DNA of 64,000 bases from Escherichia phage MIZ4. This document shows, one piece after another, positions 2,279 through 34,260 of the stretch. The notes under the pieces were generated by a model, which searched no databases, was not told where the DNA came from, and saw nothing but the letters and a program-made list of their open reading frames with translations. The number at the start of each line of letters is the position of its first letter. The first letter of the stretch is position 1. The translations under genes were made by a program, and so were the position numbers. Location: the sequence record OR167180. One strand, written 5' to 3'.

Positions 2279-3252
2279 TATACGAACTCCAATTCAACCA
2301 TTAATTGCATTAACAAAAAGACAATGTGAATCTCTTTATCAGCCGCGTGCGCAAACATCTGATTATTTTCACCGATAATCTCAGTGAGACGAATAATAGA
2401 AGCTGGCTTAACTTGAGTATACAACTCATTATAAAGTTTCTTGACAAATTGAGCGTATGTATTGGTATATCGCGGTGCAAGTTTACGTACATTAGCAAAC
2501 TGTTTAGTTTTAAGTGCTTCCACCACATCGGTTACTTCGGTATTGCTACTTTCGATAACCATGCTCAATACGCCAGCATCAATTTTACCATGTTTAGCGT
2601 AGCGGTCCAAAAGTTTCATTACGCGTCGGAAGTCTGGGAAGTTCTGCTTAACCAGTTCCGCTAATACGCGCATTTCTTCTACTGGCACACCTTCTTTATC
2701 AAGAATTGCTTTACACCGGACGATCATTTCTTTCATCATGCGAAGCTGATCATCTTTAGTCGGAGATCCAAACGTGATGGGATCAAATCGAGATCGTAAC
2801 GCTGGGATAATACCTTCTAGATCGTTTGCTGTGATAATGAATGTCACATTGTTTGAGTATGCCTCAGAGAAACTACGCAAGTGTCTTTGAGCGTCAGCTA
2901 GCCCCGCTCGGTCATACTCATCGATAATAACAACTTTGCCTTTTTCTCGTTTTTCTTCATCGAGTGATACACTCTGCGCAAAGCGTGTAATCTCATCGCG
3001 GATAAAATCAATCTTACAATCTGCGCCGTTAACAAACAGATAATCAACACCCACATCTTCGCAAAGTGCCTTAGCAACGGTTGTTTTACCAGTACCCGGC
3101 GATGGGCTATGCAGGATCATAGAAGGGATTCGGCCTTGCTTAACAATCTGCGCGAAGATCTTTTTATCTGCTTCCGGCAGAATACATTCAGAAATTGATT
3201 TCGGACGGTATTTCTGTTCCCACTGAAACTCATTTTCATTAACACTCAGCAT
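2278..3252 (-). CDS. 44: clamp-loader ATPase gp44 (AAA+)
   Basis: EQKYRPK, Walker A SPSPGTGKTT, VIIDEYDR; start taken at MLSVNENEF by comparison with T4. Confidence 0.85.
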   Translation of the reverse strand: MLSVNENEFQWEQKYRPKSISECILPEADKKIFAQIVKQGRIPSMILHSPSPGTGKTTVAKALCEDVGVDYLFVNGADCKIDFIRDEITRFAQSVSLDEEKREKGKVVIIDEYDRAGLADAQRHLRSFSEAYSNNVTFIITANDLEGIIPALRSRFDPITFGSPTKDDQLRMMKEMIVRCKAILDKEGVPVEEMRVLAELVKQNFPDFRRVMKLLDRYAKHGKIDAGVLSMVIESSNTEVTDVVEALKTKQFANVRKLAPRYTNTYAQFVKKLYNELYTQVKPASIIRLTEIIGENNQMFAHAADKEIHIVFLLMQLMVELEFV

Positions 3253-3317
3253 ATAATCACCTCTCACAAATTACATCATTAAAACGGGGAGTATTTACAC
3301 TCCCCACAAACATTATA

Positions 3318-4004
3318 TTAGTCGGTGTAGCTGGAGTCAAGGTCACACGCGATCATATAAGATACGGTTTCACTTGCCAGCCATACAGCCTTACGGCGAG
3401 TGAAGCTCAGTTTGTAATCGCCGAAGTCAGTAGCAACCAGTTTCATGTTATCTTTACGAATAAAGAAATGGAAGTCTGCGGTTCCGGTATATTCGCCCAT
3501 ATCAAGACAAAACATCTCATTAGGATTATTTTTGTCAATCTCTTCCCAACCTTTGATCATCAGACGACCATCAATCGGAAGAAATTCAAGGCGGTCCACT
3601 TTAAGCTGATTGCTCATTTTCATAAGCTGTTTCAGATCGTCGTTGCTCAGTTCGTAATCTACATCGCTTGCAGGTGGAGTAACTCGGCCTTTCGGTGATA
3701 CGATAGCGGCAGCACTAGCACCAGGATAATTAATTTTCAGACGATCATTAGACACACGAATGTTTCCGGTGCGGTCATCAACCGTAATATCTGCTTCATC
3801 GCCCACCAGATTCAGAATACCCAAGAAAGAGTTAAGATCATAGATCCCAATTTCGTGTTCCAGTTCTTGATTCAGAGTCGCTTCACCATATACAACGTTT
3901 GTCATGTTTTTGGTGATCAGGACGTTTCCTTTTTTCAGGATGATACCTGGGTTAATAGCGGAAAAGTTTTTCAGGGTAGCAATGGTTTCTTTAGTCAGTT
4001 TCAT
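3318..4004 (-). CDS. 45: sliding clamp gp45
   Basis: 228 aa; MKLTKETIATLKNFSAINPGI versus T4 MKLSKDTTALLKNFATINSGI; IYDLNSFLGILNLV. Confidence 0.85.
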   Translation of the reverse strand: MKLTKETIATLKNFSAINPGIILKKGNVLITKNMTNVVYGEATLNQELEHEIGIYDLNSFLGILNLVGDEADITVDDRTGNIRVSNDRLKINYPGASAAAIVSPKGRVTPPASDVDYELSNDDLKQLMKMSNQLKVDRLEFLPIDGRLMIKGWEEIDKNNPNEMFCLDMGEYTGTADFHFFIRKDNMKLVATDFGDYKLSFTRRKAVWLASETVSYMIACDLDSSYTD

Positions 4005-30345: not shown

Positions 30346-30634
30346 GTTCTCGATTCTCCATATTATTCAACAGAACAAATTGTTGTGCGGCATATCCCCC
30401 CATAATAAAACACTGCCTAGAATCCATACATTTACTACGAGCATACATCTTCATAATATGGGCATGAAATTTCTGGCTGGTTTCAATGGAAGGAGATATT
30501 TTGTTTACATATACTATCATTGCGCCGTCGAAATAATCAGTAAAGTCACCAGTTGGATCATATTGATCAGCACTGACACTTCCGACCGCAGTCAAGCATA
30601 TTGCCGCTGTTAGAGTTTTACGAATAAATGACAT
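30332..30634 (-). CDS. hypothetical secreted protein
   Basis: N-terminal signal-peptide-like MSFIRKTLTAAICLTAVGSVSA. Confidence 0.35.
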   Translation of the reverse strand: MSFIRKTLTAAICLTAVGSVSADQYDPTGDFTDYFDGAMIVYVNKISPSIETSQKFHAHIMKMYARSKCMDSRQCFIMGGYAAQQFVLLNNMENREHEIQ

Positions 30635-30702
30635 AAGTCATTCCCCCAGATTGAAAATATTCAATTATATTTATAATCTGGGGCTTTATTTATGATTAAC
30701 TC

Positions 30703-31299
30703 TTATTTGGTAGTACCGTCAATAAAATGTTTACGGCACACAGAAACATATTTATCCTCTGCACCAACTTCTATTTGAGCACCATCGCGAATAACATTAC
30801 CCTCTTTATCTACACGAAGGACCATTGTTGCTTTCTTACCACAATGACAAATACCCTTCATTTCGACCAGTTTATCAGCAAATGCCATTAATGCCGCAGA
30901 TCCTTCAAATAGATTGCCCTGAAAGTCAGTGCGAAGGCCATAGCACAGTACAGGGATATTAGCATCATCAACAAGCGCACACAAGCCTAAAACATGCTCT
31001 TTAGTCATAAATTGGGCTTCGTCTACAAAAACTGCATCTGGACGCCATCGATCCGGTCTACGCTTACCTAACGATTCACGATAAACCAAGTCGAAAAGAT
31101 CATCCGATTTAGTGAAGGTGATCGCTGGAGCACTTAGACCAATTCGGGAAACGACTTCACTTTCTGAATCTCGATTATCAATCGCTGGCTTAAGAATTAA
31201 TACTCGCATATCACGTTCGGTATAGTTATAAGCACTTTGTAACAGGGAAGTTGATTTGCCAGCGTTCATAGATGCATAGTAGAAATATAATTGCGCCAT
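30703..31299 (-). CDS. tk: thymidine kinase
   Basis: MNAGKST P-loop, VLILKPAIDNRD, VFVDEAQF, YGLRTDF, ICHCGKKA, CRKH match T4 Tk. Confidence 0.85.
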   Translation of the reverse strand: MAQLYFYYASMNAGKSTSLLQSAYNYTERDMRVLILKPAIDNRDSESEVVSRIGLSAPAITFTKSDDLFDLVYRESLGKRRPDRWRPDAVFVDEAQFMTKEHVLGLCALVDDANIPVLCYGLRTDFQGNLFEGSAALMAFADKLVEMKGICHCGKKATMVLRVDKEGNVIRDGAQIEVGAEDKYVSVCRKHFIDGTTK

Positions 31300-31592
31300 T
31301 AATTAATCTCCAAAAATCCAGCAAGACCTAAACCGATATAAGTCCAGATACAAAGGAAAAAGAAGCAAACACCCATAGCAAAGATAAATCCGCGTAGTGT
31401 CTTTGGATAACCTACCCAATATTCCCGACCATCTTCTAACCGGATCAGTTTATTTCCTTGCGAGTCCATATCAACTACAACATGTTTATTTCGAGATTGC
31501 AATAGATATTGTTTTACAATCTCAATACCCGCCATAATAACAATAACGAAAATAAAAGTCCACACAACAAGATTAATGATAGTCTCAAGCAT
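31299..31592 (-). CDS. hypothetical membrane protein
   Basis: 97-aa ORF with two hydrophobic segments. Confidence 0.35.
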   Translation of the reverse strand: MLETIINLVVWTFIFVIVIMAGIEIVKQYLLQSRNKHVVVDMDSQGNKLIRLEDGREYWVGYPKTLRGFIFAMGVCFFFLCIWTYIGLGLAGFLEIN

Positions 31593-31827
31593 TTTCTATC
31601 ACCTCCACCCAATCAGGTGTTTCCTGAAAGACTCCTTCACCTTCATGATGGTCACAACCTTTATTGCTGCAATACATCCACCAATCCCACATTCCCCACG
31701 GTAAACGCTGCATATCGTCGTTACAGCAAGTGAATATAATAGGCCAACCACATCTAACACATTGGCAGTTTTCTTTCATGTGAGCGGTATTCGGCTTCTT
31801 CATAGATGACTCCAATATAATCGACAT
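31585..31827 (-). CDS. hypothetical cysteine-rich protein
   Basis: 80-aa ORF. Confidence 0.3.
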   Translation of the reverse strand: MSIILESSMKKPNTAHMKENCQCVRCGWPIIFTCCNDDMQRLPWGMWDWWMYCSNKGCDHHEGEGVFQETPDWVEVIENA

Positions 31828-32030
31828 TTACATTTAGGGCAATGCGGTTCTTTAATATAATACCCGTCTGTCTTTGGAACACTAACAGGAGCGGTTTTTA
31901 TATTGTATTCAGTGAAACAACGAAAACAAGTTACGTTTTCTACAGACTGACGTTTCACCCAATCACCGGAATATAGATCATTTTTATTTGTCATATTCAA
32001 CCACCACAATGTTAATGTCTGGAGTAGCAA
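31800..32030 (-). CDS. hypothetical protein
   Basis: 76-aa ORF. Confidence 0.3.
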   Translation of the reverse strand: MLLQTLTLWWLNMTNKNDLYSGDWVKRQSVENVTCFRCFTEYNIKTAPVSVPKTDGYYIKEPHCPKCKCRLYWSHL

Positions 32031-32439
32031 TATTAATGATCTCTTCTACACATTCCCACTCAAGGCCACCGATACCGCAACCGATTTTAGGAATATAGAA
32101 AGGCTGTATAGCACCTTCAAAAACATCATTGATAGTCTCAAATCCTTTCAGGATAGCACCATATTCAGCATTTGGACCCGGTCGGAATTGGGTATATAGA
32201 TTCACCCCGCACCAGTTATAACCATTAACTTGATGCGTCCAGACACTAAACCAACCCAGCTTTTCTACCTTACCGCGAGAAGTTTGCTTGTCAATCTCTA
32301 ACGTTTGCGGGAACTCTTTCGCGATCTTTGCAGCAATACCAGCGCCCATAGTATGAAAACAATTACAACCATGAATTAAATGACCGTTTCCTTGTTTAAA
32401 CAGGGCGATGAGATCGCCCTTTACAGTATCAATAATCAT
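31984..32439 (-). CDS. macro-domain protein (ADP-ribose binding/hydrolase fold)
   Basis: HGCNCFHTMGAGIAAKI and a glycine-rich IGCGIGGL element typical of macro domains. Confidence 0.55.
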   Translation of the reverse strand: MIIDTVKGDLIALFKQGNGHLIHGCNCFHTMGAGIAAKIAKEFPQTLEIDKQTSRGKVEKLGWFSVWTHQVNGYNWCGVNLYTQFRPGPNAEYGAILKGFETINDVFEGAIQPFYIPKIGCGIGGLEWECVEEIINIATPDINIVVVEYDK

Positions 32440-32454
32440 AATATAAACCTCTCA

Positions 32455-32814
32455 TTAGTCACGGGAAGACAACCCAGCCATAAAACGGCTTAACAGTGTG
32501 TCGCGATAAGCAAAGCATAATTGCTTATCAGGGGCAGTATCACAAAGGTTGCGTTTTGTTTTAGCAAAGCTGGCAATACTCAGATCCCACGCTCGATTTT
32601 TTCGTTTTTCGTCTCGACCTTGTTTGTATGCTTCATCAAGTTCGAGCGCGATAAAATCACTACACATGTTATCATCATCACAGAAAGTTTTAATGATCTT
32701 TTTGTTGATCTCAAATCCTTTGTATTCAAACTTTGGATAAGGGCGCTCATTACTAGCAAGCGCACCAGCCGAGAACATCATAGCAATCATAGCAATTATT
32801 GTCAACTTTTTCAT
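32455..32814 (-). CDS. hypothetical periplasmic protein
   Basis: signal-peptide-like MKKLTIIAMIAMMFSAGALA plus several cysteines. Confidence 0.4.
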   Translation of the reverse strand: MKKLTIIAMIAMMFSAGALASNERPYPKFEYKGFEINKKIIKTFCDDDNMCSDFIALELDEAYKQGRDEKRKNRAWDLSIASFAKTKRNLCDTAPDKQLCFAYRDTLLSRFMAGLSSRD

Positions 32815-32821
32815 ATATTCC

Positions 32822-33412
32822 TCAATAGCGTTTAGTCTTAAGAATGCCTTTACTCTTTAGATGGTTAGCCTTTTTTAGTACGTCATCAGCATAACCTAAT
32901 CCGGCTTTATAGTTCCATCCAGCATTGTAAGAAGCTAGCGCGAGTCGGATATTACCGTTTCGAACATCCAGCCAGTATGCTAACTCATCCATCGCGTAGA
33001 ATGCAGAAACCTCGCGATTCATGATAAAGTTGATAGTCTGGCGATCACTCATTTTAACACCGCGCTTTGCATTTTTCGCTTTCACCGTTTTAAGGTAATT
33101 TTGAAATAATCCATAAGCATGATGATTTTTCTTTGGTGCTAAGTTTGCACCCGCGCTTGATTCTTGCCATGCGATACCCGCCAGGATGTGACCTAAACCC
33201 TTTCCGTTATAGCGAATATTCGGATGGTACTTTTTCAACTTACCGCTTTTCTCGAATTGCTCGCCGTATTGATAGGCGAAATGTAAATTATCTAGTTGGT
33301 GTGCTGTAAAGTTGTCTATCGGCGCTTTTTTGATCGGTGCGCTAGTCGATGCGTGTGTAGCACCAACGGCTAGTGACAGACTCAATACTATCGCTTTTAG
33401 AACTTTTAACAT
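32822..33412 (-). CDS. secreted lytic transglycosylase-like protein (SLT domain)
   Basis: signal peptide; SLT family motifs AWQESS, GLFQ, SYNAGWN. Confidence 0.55.
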   Translation of the reverse strand: MLKVLKAIVLSLSLAVGATHASTSAPIKKAPIDNFTAHQLDNLHFAYQYGEQFEKSGKLKKYHPNIRYNGKGLGHILAGIAWQESSAGANLAPKKNHHAYGLFQNYLKTVKAKNAKRGVKMSDRQTINFIMNREVSAFYAMDELAYWLDVRNGNIRLALASYNAGWNYKAGLGYADDVLKKANHLKSKGILKTKRY

Positions 33413-33497
33413 TAATTTCTCCTGTTTGGCTTAACTTTCTGATTCCATAATATAGCCCTATCACCAGAAAGTCAAGCATTATTTTAACCAATTTCCA

Positions 33498-33920
33498 TTA
33501 TTGGTCTACCTTCAAAACAACCGCCGACATTTTACCCGCCAGTCGTTTTGGATTCTCTATAATCATTCGGCAGCATAGACCGTGATATGGCTTACCCTCT
33601 TCGATTAGATCTACTGTCATCCCGATCCACATGTTACCGTCAGTAATTTCTAATCGATTCGGTCGGTCTTCCATTTTCAGGAAGTCGAAGATCTCCGGCA
33701 AACGAGTTTCTATCTTATTGAATAGTTCCATTGTCTTATGTTCATCGATATGACGATCGGTTAGACGGTCGATCATATGCGGACTAAATCGAATGAAAAT
33801 ATACTCACCGTAACCATCATTCAAGCACTTTTCTTTGATCTGCGCATTGGTTTTGCGCATTTCGGTTTCGAAGAATCTACGCAGCTTACTACGGCGAACA
33901 TGTACGTTAATTGTTTCCAT
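33498..33920 (-). CDS. regB: endoribonuclease RegB
   Basis: INVHVRRSKLRRFFE, RLEITDGNMWIGMTV, CRMIIENPKRLAGK match T4 RegB; start taken at METINV. Confidence 0.8.
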   Translation of the reverse strand: METINVHVRRSKLRRFFETEMRKTNAQIKEKCLNDGYGEYIFIRFSPHMIDRLTDRHIDEHKTMELFNKIETRLPEIFDFLKMEDRPNRLEITDGNMWIGMTVDLIEEGKPYHGLCCRMIIENPKRLAGKMSAVVLKVDQ

Positions 33921-33924
33921 TTTA

Positions 33925-34260
33925 TTATCCTTTCTTAAACAAATTGCGAAGCCAGTATACAAACGGGATTTCTTTAAACTTGAATTTCTCAATAGTTAAT
34001 TCTTTAGTAGCAAGATGAATACCATAAGCATCATGTGTAACTATATGCCATTTTCTATAGTCCAAATGTGAACAACCGTCTGGATCTAGGTTAATAAGAG
34101 TTTCTCGCTCACTAGGATTATTTTTCCACAATTTTGTAATAGGATCGCACATAATTCGACCTAGCGTACCATGAATAATCTCACAACGGTAAAGTTTTCC
34201 AGCAGTGAGATAGGCGCACCCGTCATAGTCGGTATAAACAAACACTTCTTTAACACTCAT
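33925..34260 (-). CDS. small paralog family C member
   Basis: DGCSHLDYRKW motif; start at the cassette RBS (MSVKEVF). Confidence 0.35.
   Translation of the reverse strand: MSVKEVFVYTDYDGCAYLTAGKLYRCEIIHGTLGRIMCDPITKLWKNNPSERETLINLDPDGCSHLDYRKWHIVTHDAYGIHLATKELTIEKFKFKEIPFVYWLRNLFKKG

Follow-up and report, generated by a model that had tools for sequence, protein, structure and literature searches.

A role in reversing DarTG-type defence has already been published for the phage T4 orthologue of the macrodomain gene analysed here. In a preprint of November 2025 (bioRxiv 10.1101/2025.11.20.689424), T4 tk.4 was the only significant T4 gene found on a DarTG2 host and its clean knockout sensitised the phage to this system; the authors gave the gene the new name adfM (anti-DarT factor Macrodomain). 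The evidence for T4 adfM in this preprint consists of genetics only, and the enzymatic mechanism is graded there as "seems likely". A literature search for DarTG2 together with Krischvirus found no work, and a search for the biochemistry of T4-type AdfM, in which the term "AdfM" was confounded by DOI strings, found none.

Several related macrodomains have been characterized. The AdfM of the chimallivirus PhiKZ (gp104) provides protection from DarTG2 and, in vitro, removes thymidine-linked ADP-ribose (T-ADPr), an activity that its N23A substitution reduces (Cell Rep 2026, PMC13309987). SCO6735 from Streptomyces coelicolor (PDB code 5E3B) cleaves DarT-made T-ADPr on ssDNA; the Q85A and Q85E variants are dead, N27S is nearly dead, and residue K89 of a mobile loop is reported to be important for the activity on DNA. 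Human TARG1 (OARD1; PDB codes 4J5R and 4J5S) removes T-ADPr from DNA and uracil-linked ADP-ribose (U-ADPr) from RNA. ALC1-like macrodomains are documented to act on protein ADP-ribose linked to Glu/Asp and on nucleic-acid ADP-ribose linked to T/U, and one proposal takes T-ADPr hydrolysis on ssDNA to be the activity that unites the class (PMC9411070). The anti-DarTG2 phenotype (T4 tk.4) and T-ADPr hydrolysis (SCO6735, DarG, TARG1 and PhiKZ gp104) were all established by others, on relatives of the protein described below.

The tk.4 homologue of phage MIZ4 and its setting

The window, a 64-kb stretch of DNA from Escherichia phage MIZ4, matches the RB49-like Krischvirus Escherichia phage MIZ5 at 100% identity, and RB49 itself shares 98% identity with the window across the tk.4 region. 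The open reading frame of interest has the coordinates given in the first-pass annotation (31984..32439); it lies on the minus strand and has an ATG start and a TAA stop. It encodes a protein of 151 residues (16.7 kDa, pI 5.3), the homologues of which are labelled "phosphatase" in MIZ5 (WNA15269.1) and "tk.4" in RB49. A Shine-Dalgarno-like GAGAGG, read from the sequence (32448..32453, minus strand), is located 8 nt upstream of the ATG, inside the 15-nt gap that follows the vs stop codon.

The MIZ4 protein and T4 Tk.4 share 44% sequence identity (151 of 155 residues aligned, E 2e-44) and both belong to PHROG 335, which the MIZ4 protein matches with an E value of 4e-60. The motifs HGCNCFHTMG, NLYTQF.PGPN and P.IG.GIG are common to the two proteins, which are of similar length (151 and 155 residues) and whose genes both lie between vs and the tk cluster. 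From rI.-1 through rI, tk, three small ORFs, tk.4, vs and vs.1 to regB, the window and T4 have their genes in one and the same order, and a tk.4 homologue is found between vs.1/vs and tk in about 20 of the best 80 viral loci. By sequence and gene order, the gene is the Krischvirus positional orthologue of T4 tk.4/adfM. The two proteins differ at 56% of their residues, and the anti-DarTG2 phenotype is that of T4 only.

The first-pass annotation described the gene as adjacent to tk (30703..31299). The gene is indeed nearby, within the tk cluster, but three small ORFs (31800..31994, 31585..31803 and 31299..31592) intervene, and it is flanked directly by vs (32455..32814) on its upstream side and by a zinc-ribbon ORF on its downstream side. 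The tk.4 stop codon overlaps the start codon of this zinc-ribbon ORF (31800..31994, Pfam PF23903) through the 11-nt stretch ATGACAAATAA (31984..31994, minus strand), a layout compatible with translational coupling. The whole vs.1-vs-tk.4-...-tk block is tightly packed, with gaps of 7, 15, −11, −4, −8 and −1 nt. A candidate sigma-70-type promoter (TTGACT-17-TATTAT; 33447..33475, minus strand), identified by consensus match only within the 85 nt that separate regB from vs.1, could drive this block; no promoter is annotated in the regB/vs.1 region of the RB49 record. The consensus scan returned 22 sites (15.2 ± 4.8 expected) and is uninformative beyond this one plausible site upstream of vs.1.

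The composition of the three small ORFs before tk differs between the two phages, with zinc-ribbon families PF23903 and PF23895 plus phrog_16027 in the window versus the unrelated DUF7202 and DUF7438 in T4. It was considered whether the gene works together with the zinc-ribbon genes that follow it, and this idea was rejected, since T4 tk.1-tk.3 belong to these unrelated families. PF23903-like and PF23895-like neighbours are found at only two and seven, respectively, of the 80 viral loci, and an obligate partner is lacking. When the 1,154 ORFs that lie on the same strand and within 3 kb of the macro gene at these loci were clustered, only the T4-like synteny block recurred; NADAR, ART and other defence-related genes did not emerge as partners. 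In positions 1–50000 of the window (record positions 96001–146000), no ART-like gene is annotated and the tk.4 homologue has no paired darT. Members of the Tk.4 family are encoded within NAD+ salvage clusters in some unrelated phages, a hint that the family may not have one uniform role.

Macro fold and ALC1-like class

The MIZ4 protein matches the Pfam Macro family (PF01661) over the full profile (positions 1–118 of 118) with 27.0 bits (E 4.7e-6), above the gathering threshold of 22 bits. A sequence search of the PDB matched DarG, SCO6735, BT1257 and TARG1 at E values of 2e-8 to 5e-6, and these improved to about 1e-16 to 1e-13 when the family profile was used (BT1257 63 bits, SCO6735 56, M. 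tuberculosis DarG 55, TARG1 54, with Poa1p also among the matches). An AlphaFold2 model, calculated from an alignment from which the T4 sequence row was left out, has a pLDDT of 96.6 and a pTM of 0.91. Structure prediction had been named in advance as a possible refutation of the macro-domain proposal; the model instead returned a macro fold.

A Foldseek search of the PDB with this model gave 191 matches at E ≤ 0.001, the top 50 of which are all macrodomains or designs on a macro scaffold. TARG1, Poa1p and DarG occupy ranks 1–17, and TARG1 is the best structural match (E 7e-11, TM-scores 0.76/0.82, 28–29% sequence identity). T. aquaticus and M. tuberculosis DarG follow with TM-scores of 0.74–0.79, and the Thermosipho DarTG complex, BT1257 and SCO6735 are also near the top. 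ALC1-like structures outrank the MacroD-type viral macrodomains. As predicted, the protein has the three-layer α/β/α macro fold, and profile scores together with model comparisons place it in the ALC1-like class (TARG1/DarG/SCO6735), rather than with MacroD, PARG or macroH2A. The original macro-domain call is thereby borne out, and, as judged from both sequence and model, the assignment is well beyond chance.

The protein resembles the DarG (DarG2) macrodomain (PDB codes 5M31, 5M3E, 5M3I and 7OMU) in fold, class, glycine-rich loops and a conserved asparagine, but lacks the C-terminal DarT-binding domain, the catalytic K80 (replaced by Q84) and an adjoining darT. DarG (NF048014) is the sole NCBIfam/PADLOC match, with 48 and 50 bits over model positions 2–141 of 338; the score of 48.1 bits is far below the curated cutoff of 250, and the protein is not a full-length DarG. 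The same model scores PhiKZ gp104 at 138 bits, compared with 48 for the MIZ4 protein. Like the MIZ4 protein, gp104 is a phage-encoded single-domain macrodomain, and its N23 corresponds to MIZ4 N26. The two are 26% identical (hhalign probability 97%), and gp104 differs in being of the lysine type (K78) and in being imported into a phage nucleus, a structure that T4-like phages do not have. T4-type AdfM and PhiKZ AdfM are probably separate acquisitions under one name.

A glutamine-type active site

Both motifs on which the first-pass annotation had relied are present on the minus strand: HGCNCFHTMGAGIAAKI at 32323..32373 (residues 23–39) and IGCGIGGL at 32062..32085 (residues 119–126). The first begins with H23-G24-C25-N26 (32362..32373, minus strand), which aligns with H24-V25-C26-N27 of SCO6735. 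N26 is invariant in the Tk.4 family and matches the conserved catalytic asparagine of DarG (N22) and PhiKZ AdfM (N23). The first glycine-rich loop, M31-G32-A33-G34-I35-A36 (32332..32349, minus strand), lies within the same motif, and its M31, G34 and A36 are invariant. The second, phosphate-binding loop (P117-K-I-G120-C-G122-I-G-G125; 32065..32091, minus strand) overlaps IGCGIGGL. In relatives, the two loops touch the diphosphate and the distal ribose; both are conserved here, and by analogy the MIZ4 protein is predicted to contact ADP-ribose.

The segment N80-L81-Y82-T83-Q84 (32188..32202, minus strand) places a glutamine at the position of the catalytic lysine. Q84 aligns with K80 of DarG, which is the catalytic lysine in both the T. 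aquaticus and the M. tuberculosis enzyme, with K84 of TARG1 and K78 of PhiKZ AdfM, and with the essential Gln85 of SCO6735. Residue numbering was checked for the alignment of H23, N26 and Q84 to SCO6735 and TARG1. Additionally, G124 occupies the position of TARG1 D125, such that the TARG1 Lys/Asp dyad K84/D125 becomes Q84/G124 in the MIZ4 protein. In an alignment of 69 Tk.4 family members, Q84 is present in all but one, which has lysine instead and suggests that the two residues may be interchangeable; G24, N26, M31, G34, G120 and G122 are invariant, G125 is found in 68 and H23 in 67. As read from the alignments, the active site is of the glutamine type (H23-x-C-N26 ... Q84), as in SCO6735 and unlike the lysine-type DarG, TARG1 and PhiKZ AdfM. 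This Gln-for-Lys detail of the Tk.4 family may be new.

SCO6735 is also a stand-alone protein of about 150 residues without a DarT-binding domain, and shares H-x-C-N, the glutamine at the DarG/TARG1 lysine position and a G-x-G-x-x-G loop with the MIZ4 protein, at about 26% sequence identity. Of the features that define a SCO6735-type site, the glutamine is present, as are the counterparts of Asn27, which positions it, and of His24 in H-V-C-N. The extended mobile loop is absent: in SCO6735 it is five residues longer than in DarG and TARG1 and carries K89 and K94, and the corresponding "GMKTG" insert is missing from both the MIZ4 and the T4 proteins. An electropositive DNA-binding surface also belongs to this definition, and the isoelectric points differ (5.3 for the MIZ4 protein versus 9.7 for the SCO6735 fragment). 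The acidity of the MIZ4 protein was considered as an argument against a DNA substrate and rejected, because PhiKZ AdfM, which is proven to act on DNA, is equally acidic (pI 5.05). SCO6735 further differs in being a bacterial protein tied to antibiotic production and DNA damage, and is not a phage counter-defence factor.

Proposed function and alternatives

The present analysis establishes the fold and the class, shows that the gene is orthologous to and syntenic with T4 tk.4, and finds the active-site residues conserved. On this basis, the gene product is likely a stand-alone ALC1-like macrodomain ADP-ribosylglycohydrolase, the orthologue of T4 AdfM, that counters DarTG2. We infer the same activity and role for the MIZ4 protein by analogy with the 44%-identical T4 Tk.4 and the other relatives. 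The first-pass annotation had suggested that the protein could reverse a DarTG-type ADP-ribosylation defence, and the genetics of the T4 orthologue, both screen and knockout, support this suggestion.

In a DarTG2 host, DarT2 uses NAD+ to attach ADP-ribose to thymidines of single-stranded phage DNA, and replication is blocked. The defence requires slow growth of the host, as in M9 glucose at 30 °C or with sub-MIC chloramphenicol. The ADP-ribose would most likely be held by the two glycine-rich loops of the phage macrodomain, which would then, again most likely, hydrolyse the ribose-thymine bond, such that ADP-ribose is freed, the base is restored and replication resumes. Since the MIZ4 protein has no DarG-like C-terminal DarT-binding domain, it would act by catalysis alone, as an orphan enzymatic antitoxin. 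T4 AdfN depends on further phage factors. Points against this reading are the distance from Tk.4 (44% identity), the fact that the proven PhiKZ gp104 is only 26% identical and of the lysine type, and the absence of the SCO6735 K89 loop.

Another reading, which we regard as unlikely, is that the Tk.4 family forms a distinct, phage-specific, glutamine-type branch of the ALC1-like class with a role possibly broader than DarT2 reversal. Its members could be general erasers of thymine- and uracil-linked ADP-ribose on DNA and RNA; alternatively, the homologues embedded among Prs and NampT genes could couple the removal of defence ADP-ribose to NAD+ regeneration. The paper on NARP3 (phage NAD+ rebuilding) nowhere mentions a macrodomain. 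If the role were broader in this sense, the T4-like and PhiKZ proteins named AdfM would be mechanistically different, independently acquired enzymes.

Slightly less probable still is that the protein counters broader or different nucleic-acid ADP-ribosylating toxins, acting on uracil in RNA or on other base or phosphate sites, with DarT2 as one target or as irrelevant for Krischvirus. TARG1, DarG and especially the glutamine-type SCO6735 also reverse U-ADPr on ssRNA, and the Tk.4 family is found in 2,725 of 50,697 phage records from many hosts, a spread that seems wider than one sporadic defence system would select for. Against this, T4 tk.4 was the lone and specific result of the DarTG2 screen, and no bacterial uracil-ADP-ribosylating anti-phage system was found in the literature examined, in which the U-ADPr writer is human PARP10.

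A small-molecule enzyme, either an ADP-ribose-1''-phosphate phosphatase or an O-acetyl-ADP-ribose deacetylase that feeds NAD+ or nucleotide metabolism and takes no part in DNA repair, appears very unlikely. PHROG 335 and RefSeq carry the labels "phosphatase" or "A1pp phosphatase motif", and the yeast ADP-ribose-1''-phosphate phosphatase Poa1p is among the best fold matches. Moreover, Acinetobacter phage KissB and Vibrio phage Pontus each carry a homologue embedded among Prs/NampT NAD+ salvage genes, and Prs and/or NampT are encoded within 5 kb at five of the 80 viral loci. The phosphatase label is presumably a historical domain name that reflects no tested activity. NAD+ salvage neighbours are absent at the MIZ4 locus and at about 20 T4-like loci, the DarTG2 phenotype of the T4 knockout is specific, and NAD+-salvage and anti-ADP-ribosylation genes may merely share anti-defence regions of the genome.

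The first-pass annotation had also suggested that the protein might regulate phage ADP-ribosyltransferases, and this part found no support. RB49 encodes alt, a second Alt-C-terminal-like ADP-ribosyltransferase and modB, which puts writers and a potential eraser in one phage type, and modifications made by these enzymes on host proteins or RNA could in principle be regulated or reversed. However, Alt, ModA and ModB make arginine-linked ADP-ribose, and the substrates of ALC1-like enzymes are Glu/Asp esters and T/U bases. The ART genes lie tens of kilobases away, outside the window, and the Tk.4 family also occurs in many phages of lineages that are not known to carry Alt/Mod homologues, such as the Felix O1-like, Vequintavirinae and T5-like phages. 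We consider this role highly improbable, and it was rejected as the primary function, with alt, modB and the Alt-like gene of RB49 distant and nothing tying them to tk.4.

Some macrodomains only bind ADP-ribose, two other phage factors, AdfA and AdfB, counter DarT by binding it directly, and the canonical DarG/TARG1 lysine is missing here, yet a non-catalytic reader or sponge, or a direct DarT inhibitor, is just as improbable, given that the SCO6735 catalytic essentials N27, Q85 and Gly-loop G128 have near-invariant counterparts in the Tk.4 family, that the lone member without Q84 carries lysine, the other catalytic option, and that the protein has no counterpart of the DarT-binding domain of DarG.

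The first annotations of T4-like genomes already recognised the product of this gene as a macro ("A1pp") domain protein. Biochemical documentation of macrodomain anti-DarT factors from phages now exists (PhiKZ), and the present assignment carries little weight as a discovery; its value is one of calibration, in that a reading from sequence alone reached a published function. The labels "phosphatase" and "hypothetical protein" are misleading, and "AdfM-like ADP-ribosylglycohydrolase" is a possible replacement. Because T4-type AdfM has a glutamine at the catalytic position, SCO6735 rather than DarG K80 would be the model for its mutagenesis and mechanism, with N26 and Q84 as the residues concerned. 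For phage therapy, the presence of the gene would predict resistance to hosts with DarTG2, provided that the function carries over.

Gene and locus

The tk.4 orthologue is encoded on the minus strand at 31984..32439, with an ATG start and a TAA stop, and its product contains 151 residues. Both motifs quoted for this ORF in the first-pass annotation were located in the product, HGCNCFHTMGAGIAAKI at residues 23–39 and IGCGIGGL at residues 119–126. The 15-nt gap behind the preceding gene contains a Shine-Dalgarno sequence, GAGAGG, 8 nt 5' of the ATG. At the 3' end, the stop codon and the start of the following ORF overlap (ATGACAAATAA). In G+C content (0.41), the ORF is in line with the window as a whole (0.40). 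Escherichia phage MIZ5 (OR167181; Straboviridae, Krischvirus) matches the region 30500–34000 (window coordinates, i.e. record coordinates minus 96000) with 100% identity, and RB49, JSE and relatives match it with ~98%; the gene is annotated as "phosphatase" in MIZ5 and as "tk.4 ... contains A1pp phosphatase motif" in RB49.

The window and T4 share the gene order rI.-1, rI, tk, three small ORFs, tk.4, vs, vs.1, regB. Directly upstream of tk.4 is vs (valyl-tRNA synthetase modifier), and directly downstream a zinc-ribbon ORF (Pfam PF23903). The earlier description of the gene as adjacent to tk is thus loose, since the three small ORFs intervene. These ORFs (31800..31994, 31585..31803 and 31299..31592, all minus; block 31299..31994) occupy the tk.1–tk.3 slots, each overlap their neighbours by 1–11 nt, and encode two phage zinc-binding proteins (PF23903 and PF23895) and a 97-residue protein that matches phrog_16027 only and looks hydrophobic by inspection. 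They have no homology to the proteins in the T4 slots, which are one DUF7202 and two DUF7438 proteins.

Intergenic spacings from vs.1 to tk are 7, 15, −11, −4, −8 and −1 nt, and such tight spacing suggests that these genes form one transcription unit. A candidate sigma-70-like site, a consensus match only, is present in the gap of 85 nt that precedes vs.1, where no promoter is annotated in the RB49 record. The top sigma-70-like match of the region (32777..32805, minus; TTGACA-17-TATGAT with an upstream TG, 11/12) is inside the 5' end of vs; if functional, it would give a transcript that starts in vs and reads into tk.4. The vs.1 gene (32822..33412, minus), annotated only as hypothetical, has a product that matches the Pfam PF01464 SLT lytic transglycosylase domain (25.8 bits, cutoff 21.3) and whose N-terminus is signal-peptide-like by inspection. 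In T4-like loci, vs.1 is the gene that most often neighbours the macro gene on its upstream side (22/80).

Fold and active site

The protein matches the full Pfam Macro profile (PF01661) with 27 bits (cutoff 22). A phmmer search of the PDB identified the Mycobacterium tuberculosis DarG macrodomain (5M3I, E 2e-8), BT1257, SCO6735 (5E3B) and TARG1/C6orf130, and the same matches rose to 48–63 bits with a profile of 69 family members. The AlphaFold2 model, with 68 homologues as input, has a pLDDT of 96.6 and a pTM of 0.91. Its top Foldseek matches are TARG1 (E 7e-11, TM 0.76/0.82), Poa1p and DarG from three species (TM 0.74–0.79), followed by BT1257 and SCO6735 (E <1e-6), which rank among the first MacroD-type viral macrodomains. 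The sole NCBIfam and PADLOC match is DarG (48 and 50 bits, far under the NCBIfam cutoff of 250), limited to its N-terminal macrodomain (positions 2–141 of ~330); the DarT-binding domain is absent from the window protein, and no darT gene lies beside tk.4. Therefore, the protein belongs to the ALC1-like (TARG1/DarG/SCO6735) class of macrodomains and consists of this one domain, and the macro domain proposed from sequence is borne out by Pfam, PDB and structural model alike.

Gln84 aligns with the catalytic lysine of DarG (K80), TARG1 (K84) and PhiKZ AdfM (K78), and with Gln85 of SCO6735. This placement is concordant between pairwise HMMER alignments and a MAFFT alignment with fragments of solved structures, which recovers TARG1 K84/D125 and SCO6735 H24/N27/Q85. 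Among 69 diverse family members, T4 Tk.4 included, Asn26, Gly120 and Gly122 are invariant, Gln84 and Gly125 are each present in 68, and His23 in 67. TARG1 D125 corresponds to Gly124. The sole member without Gln84, a metagenomic homologue (P0020, 49% identity), has a lysine instead (GLNLYTKYW), as in DarG and TARG1 catalysis, which may be a natural hint that Gln and Lys are interchangeable at this position.

[quoted passage not shown] Its Q85A and Q85E variants are inactive and N27S nearly so; in the water-mediated mechanism proposed for it, this Gln places the distal ribose in position. The T4-type AdfM family thus carries, by its alignment, an SCO6735-type signature (H-x-C-N ... Q) rather than a DarG-type one, although the window and T4 proteins lack the 5-residue longer "mobile loop" of SCO6735 that carries K89. 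In contrast, PhiKZ AdfM is a Lys-type protein of a DarG-proximal branch that shares 26% identity with the window protein (hhalign probability 97%) and scores 138 bits against the DarG model, compared with 48. Thus, the two proteins called AdfM are only distantly related, and were probably acquired separately.

Predicted role against DarTG2

Full-length identity of the window protein to T4 Tk.4 is 44% (E 2e-44), and the genomic slot is the same for both; the regB-vs.1-(vs)-macro-...-tk layout recurs in ~20 of the best 80 matches in a viral-contig collection. Fold, class, orthology and conserved catalytic positions were established in this analysis. In a T4 transposon library grown on a DarTG2-expressing host, tk.4 was the single significant hit, and a clean knockout rendered T4 sensitive to DarTG2; Tk.4 was found to be structurally similar to M. 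tuberculosis DarG and the gene was renamed adfM, with enzymatic removal of ADP-ribose from DNA stated only to "seem likely" (bioRxiv 10.1101/2025.11.20.689424, 20 November 2025). PhiKZ gp104, independently named AdfM, takes DarT2-installed ADP-ribose off the thymidine of a TNTC oligonucleotide in vitro, with reduced activity of N23A; it rescues DarT2 toxicity, and its deletion abolishes protection (Cell Reports 2026).

Phenotype is thus known for T4, and chemistry for SCO6735, DarG, TARG1 and PhiKZ gp104. By analogy we infer both for the window protein, which probably removes DarT2-installed ADP-ribose from phage DNA and so counters DarTG2, in support of the main interpretation of the first-pass annotation, reversal of DarTG-type defence. 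During infection of a DarTG2 host, DarT2 ADP-ribosylates thymidines in single-stranded phage DNA; the two Gly-rich loops of the macrodomain would bind the ADP-ribose, while Asn26 and Gln84 would position the distal ribose, and the enzyme would hydrolyse the N-glycosidic link to restore replicable DNA. The phage proteins are acidic (pI 5.0–6.3), unlike SCO6735, TARG1 and DarG; since the proven PhiKZ enzyme has a pI of 5.05, acidity is no argument against a DNA substrate.

A broader or different nucleic-acid target is a less likely alternative, as SCO6735, TARG1 and DarG remove ADP-ribose from uracil in RNA as well, and 2,725 of 50,697 phage records contain the family. A "phosphatase" or deacetylase function on small molecules, tied to NAD+ metabolism, would agree with the macro genes within NAD+ salvage clusters of KissB and Pontus, and with Prs and/or NampT within 5 kb in 5 of the best 80 viral loci, but the "phosphatase" label apparently just goes back to an old name for the domain. 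For regulation of ADP-ribosyltransferases made by the phage itself, also proposed earlier, RB49 does have alt, Alt-like and modB genes; however, nothing connects these to tk.4, and their chemistry differs from that of ALC1-like macrodomains. A non-catalytic binder is unlikely given the conserved catalytic positions.

Family members in other phages

When 1,154 ORFs neighbouring the macro gene on its strand in 80 loci were clustered, no partner recurred outside the T4-like block, which fits a self-sufficient enzyme. The closest relatives outside Krischvirus are found in Vequintavirinae (AlexBoehm, Bas59 and loci L011 and L012; 66–70% identity), whereas homologues from other T4-like phages share at most 52%. 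In the macro locus of the Vequintavirus AlexBoehm (MZ501048, 5001–5907), a zinc-ribbon gene (PF23903) follows the macro gene two ORFs downstream. Together with the high identity, this suggests that Krischvirus and Vequintavirinae have exchanged a small block of genes horizontally.

The cluster of Acinetobacter phage KissB (OZ038335, 1967–5471) comprises Prs, a small ORF, NampT and macro, whose start overlaps the NampT stop; that of Vibrio phage Pontus (NC_055801, 3132–6195) comprises Prs, macro and NampT, and here the start of macro overlaps the stop of Prs. In unrelated phages, loci L062, L072, L073, L080 and L085 likewise have Tk.4-family macro genes within NAD+ salvage clusters. An anti-defence region common to these genes may explain such clustering, or else ADP-ribose removal may be tied metabolically to NAD+ regeneration. 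The Salmonella phage Felix O1 homologue is a 786-nt "phosphatase" CDS (NC_005282, 2995–3780) with a macro match of ~465 nt (3001–3465); it may have a C-terminal extension or second domain, or be over-extended.

RB49-type phages also encode, outside the window, alt, modB, 30.3 and a further ADP-ribosyltransferase that is similar to the C-terminus of Alt (RB49p183) (RB49, NC_005066, 11490–14443 and 25610–26089; locus L007, 8917–9420). Their 30.3 (Pfam Phage_30_3, E 1e-38) belongs to the family of T4 AdfN, a NADAR enzyme active against DarTG1 and not DarTG2 in earlier work. As 30.3 is present besides tk.4, this phage type probably carries erasers against DarT1 as well as DarT2.

The main part of the finding is not new: the domain has long been annotated, and a function for the T4 orthologue was reported in 2025. 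The sole increment is the Gln-type, SCO6735-like site of T4-type AdfM, which may not yet be in print, together with the clear separation of this family from the Lys-type AdfM of PhiKZ.
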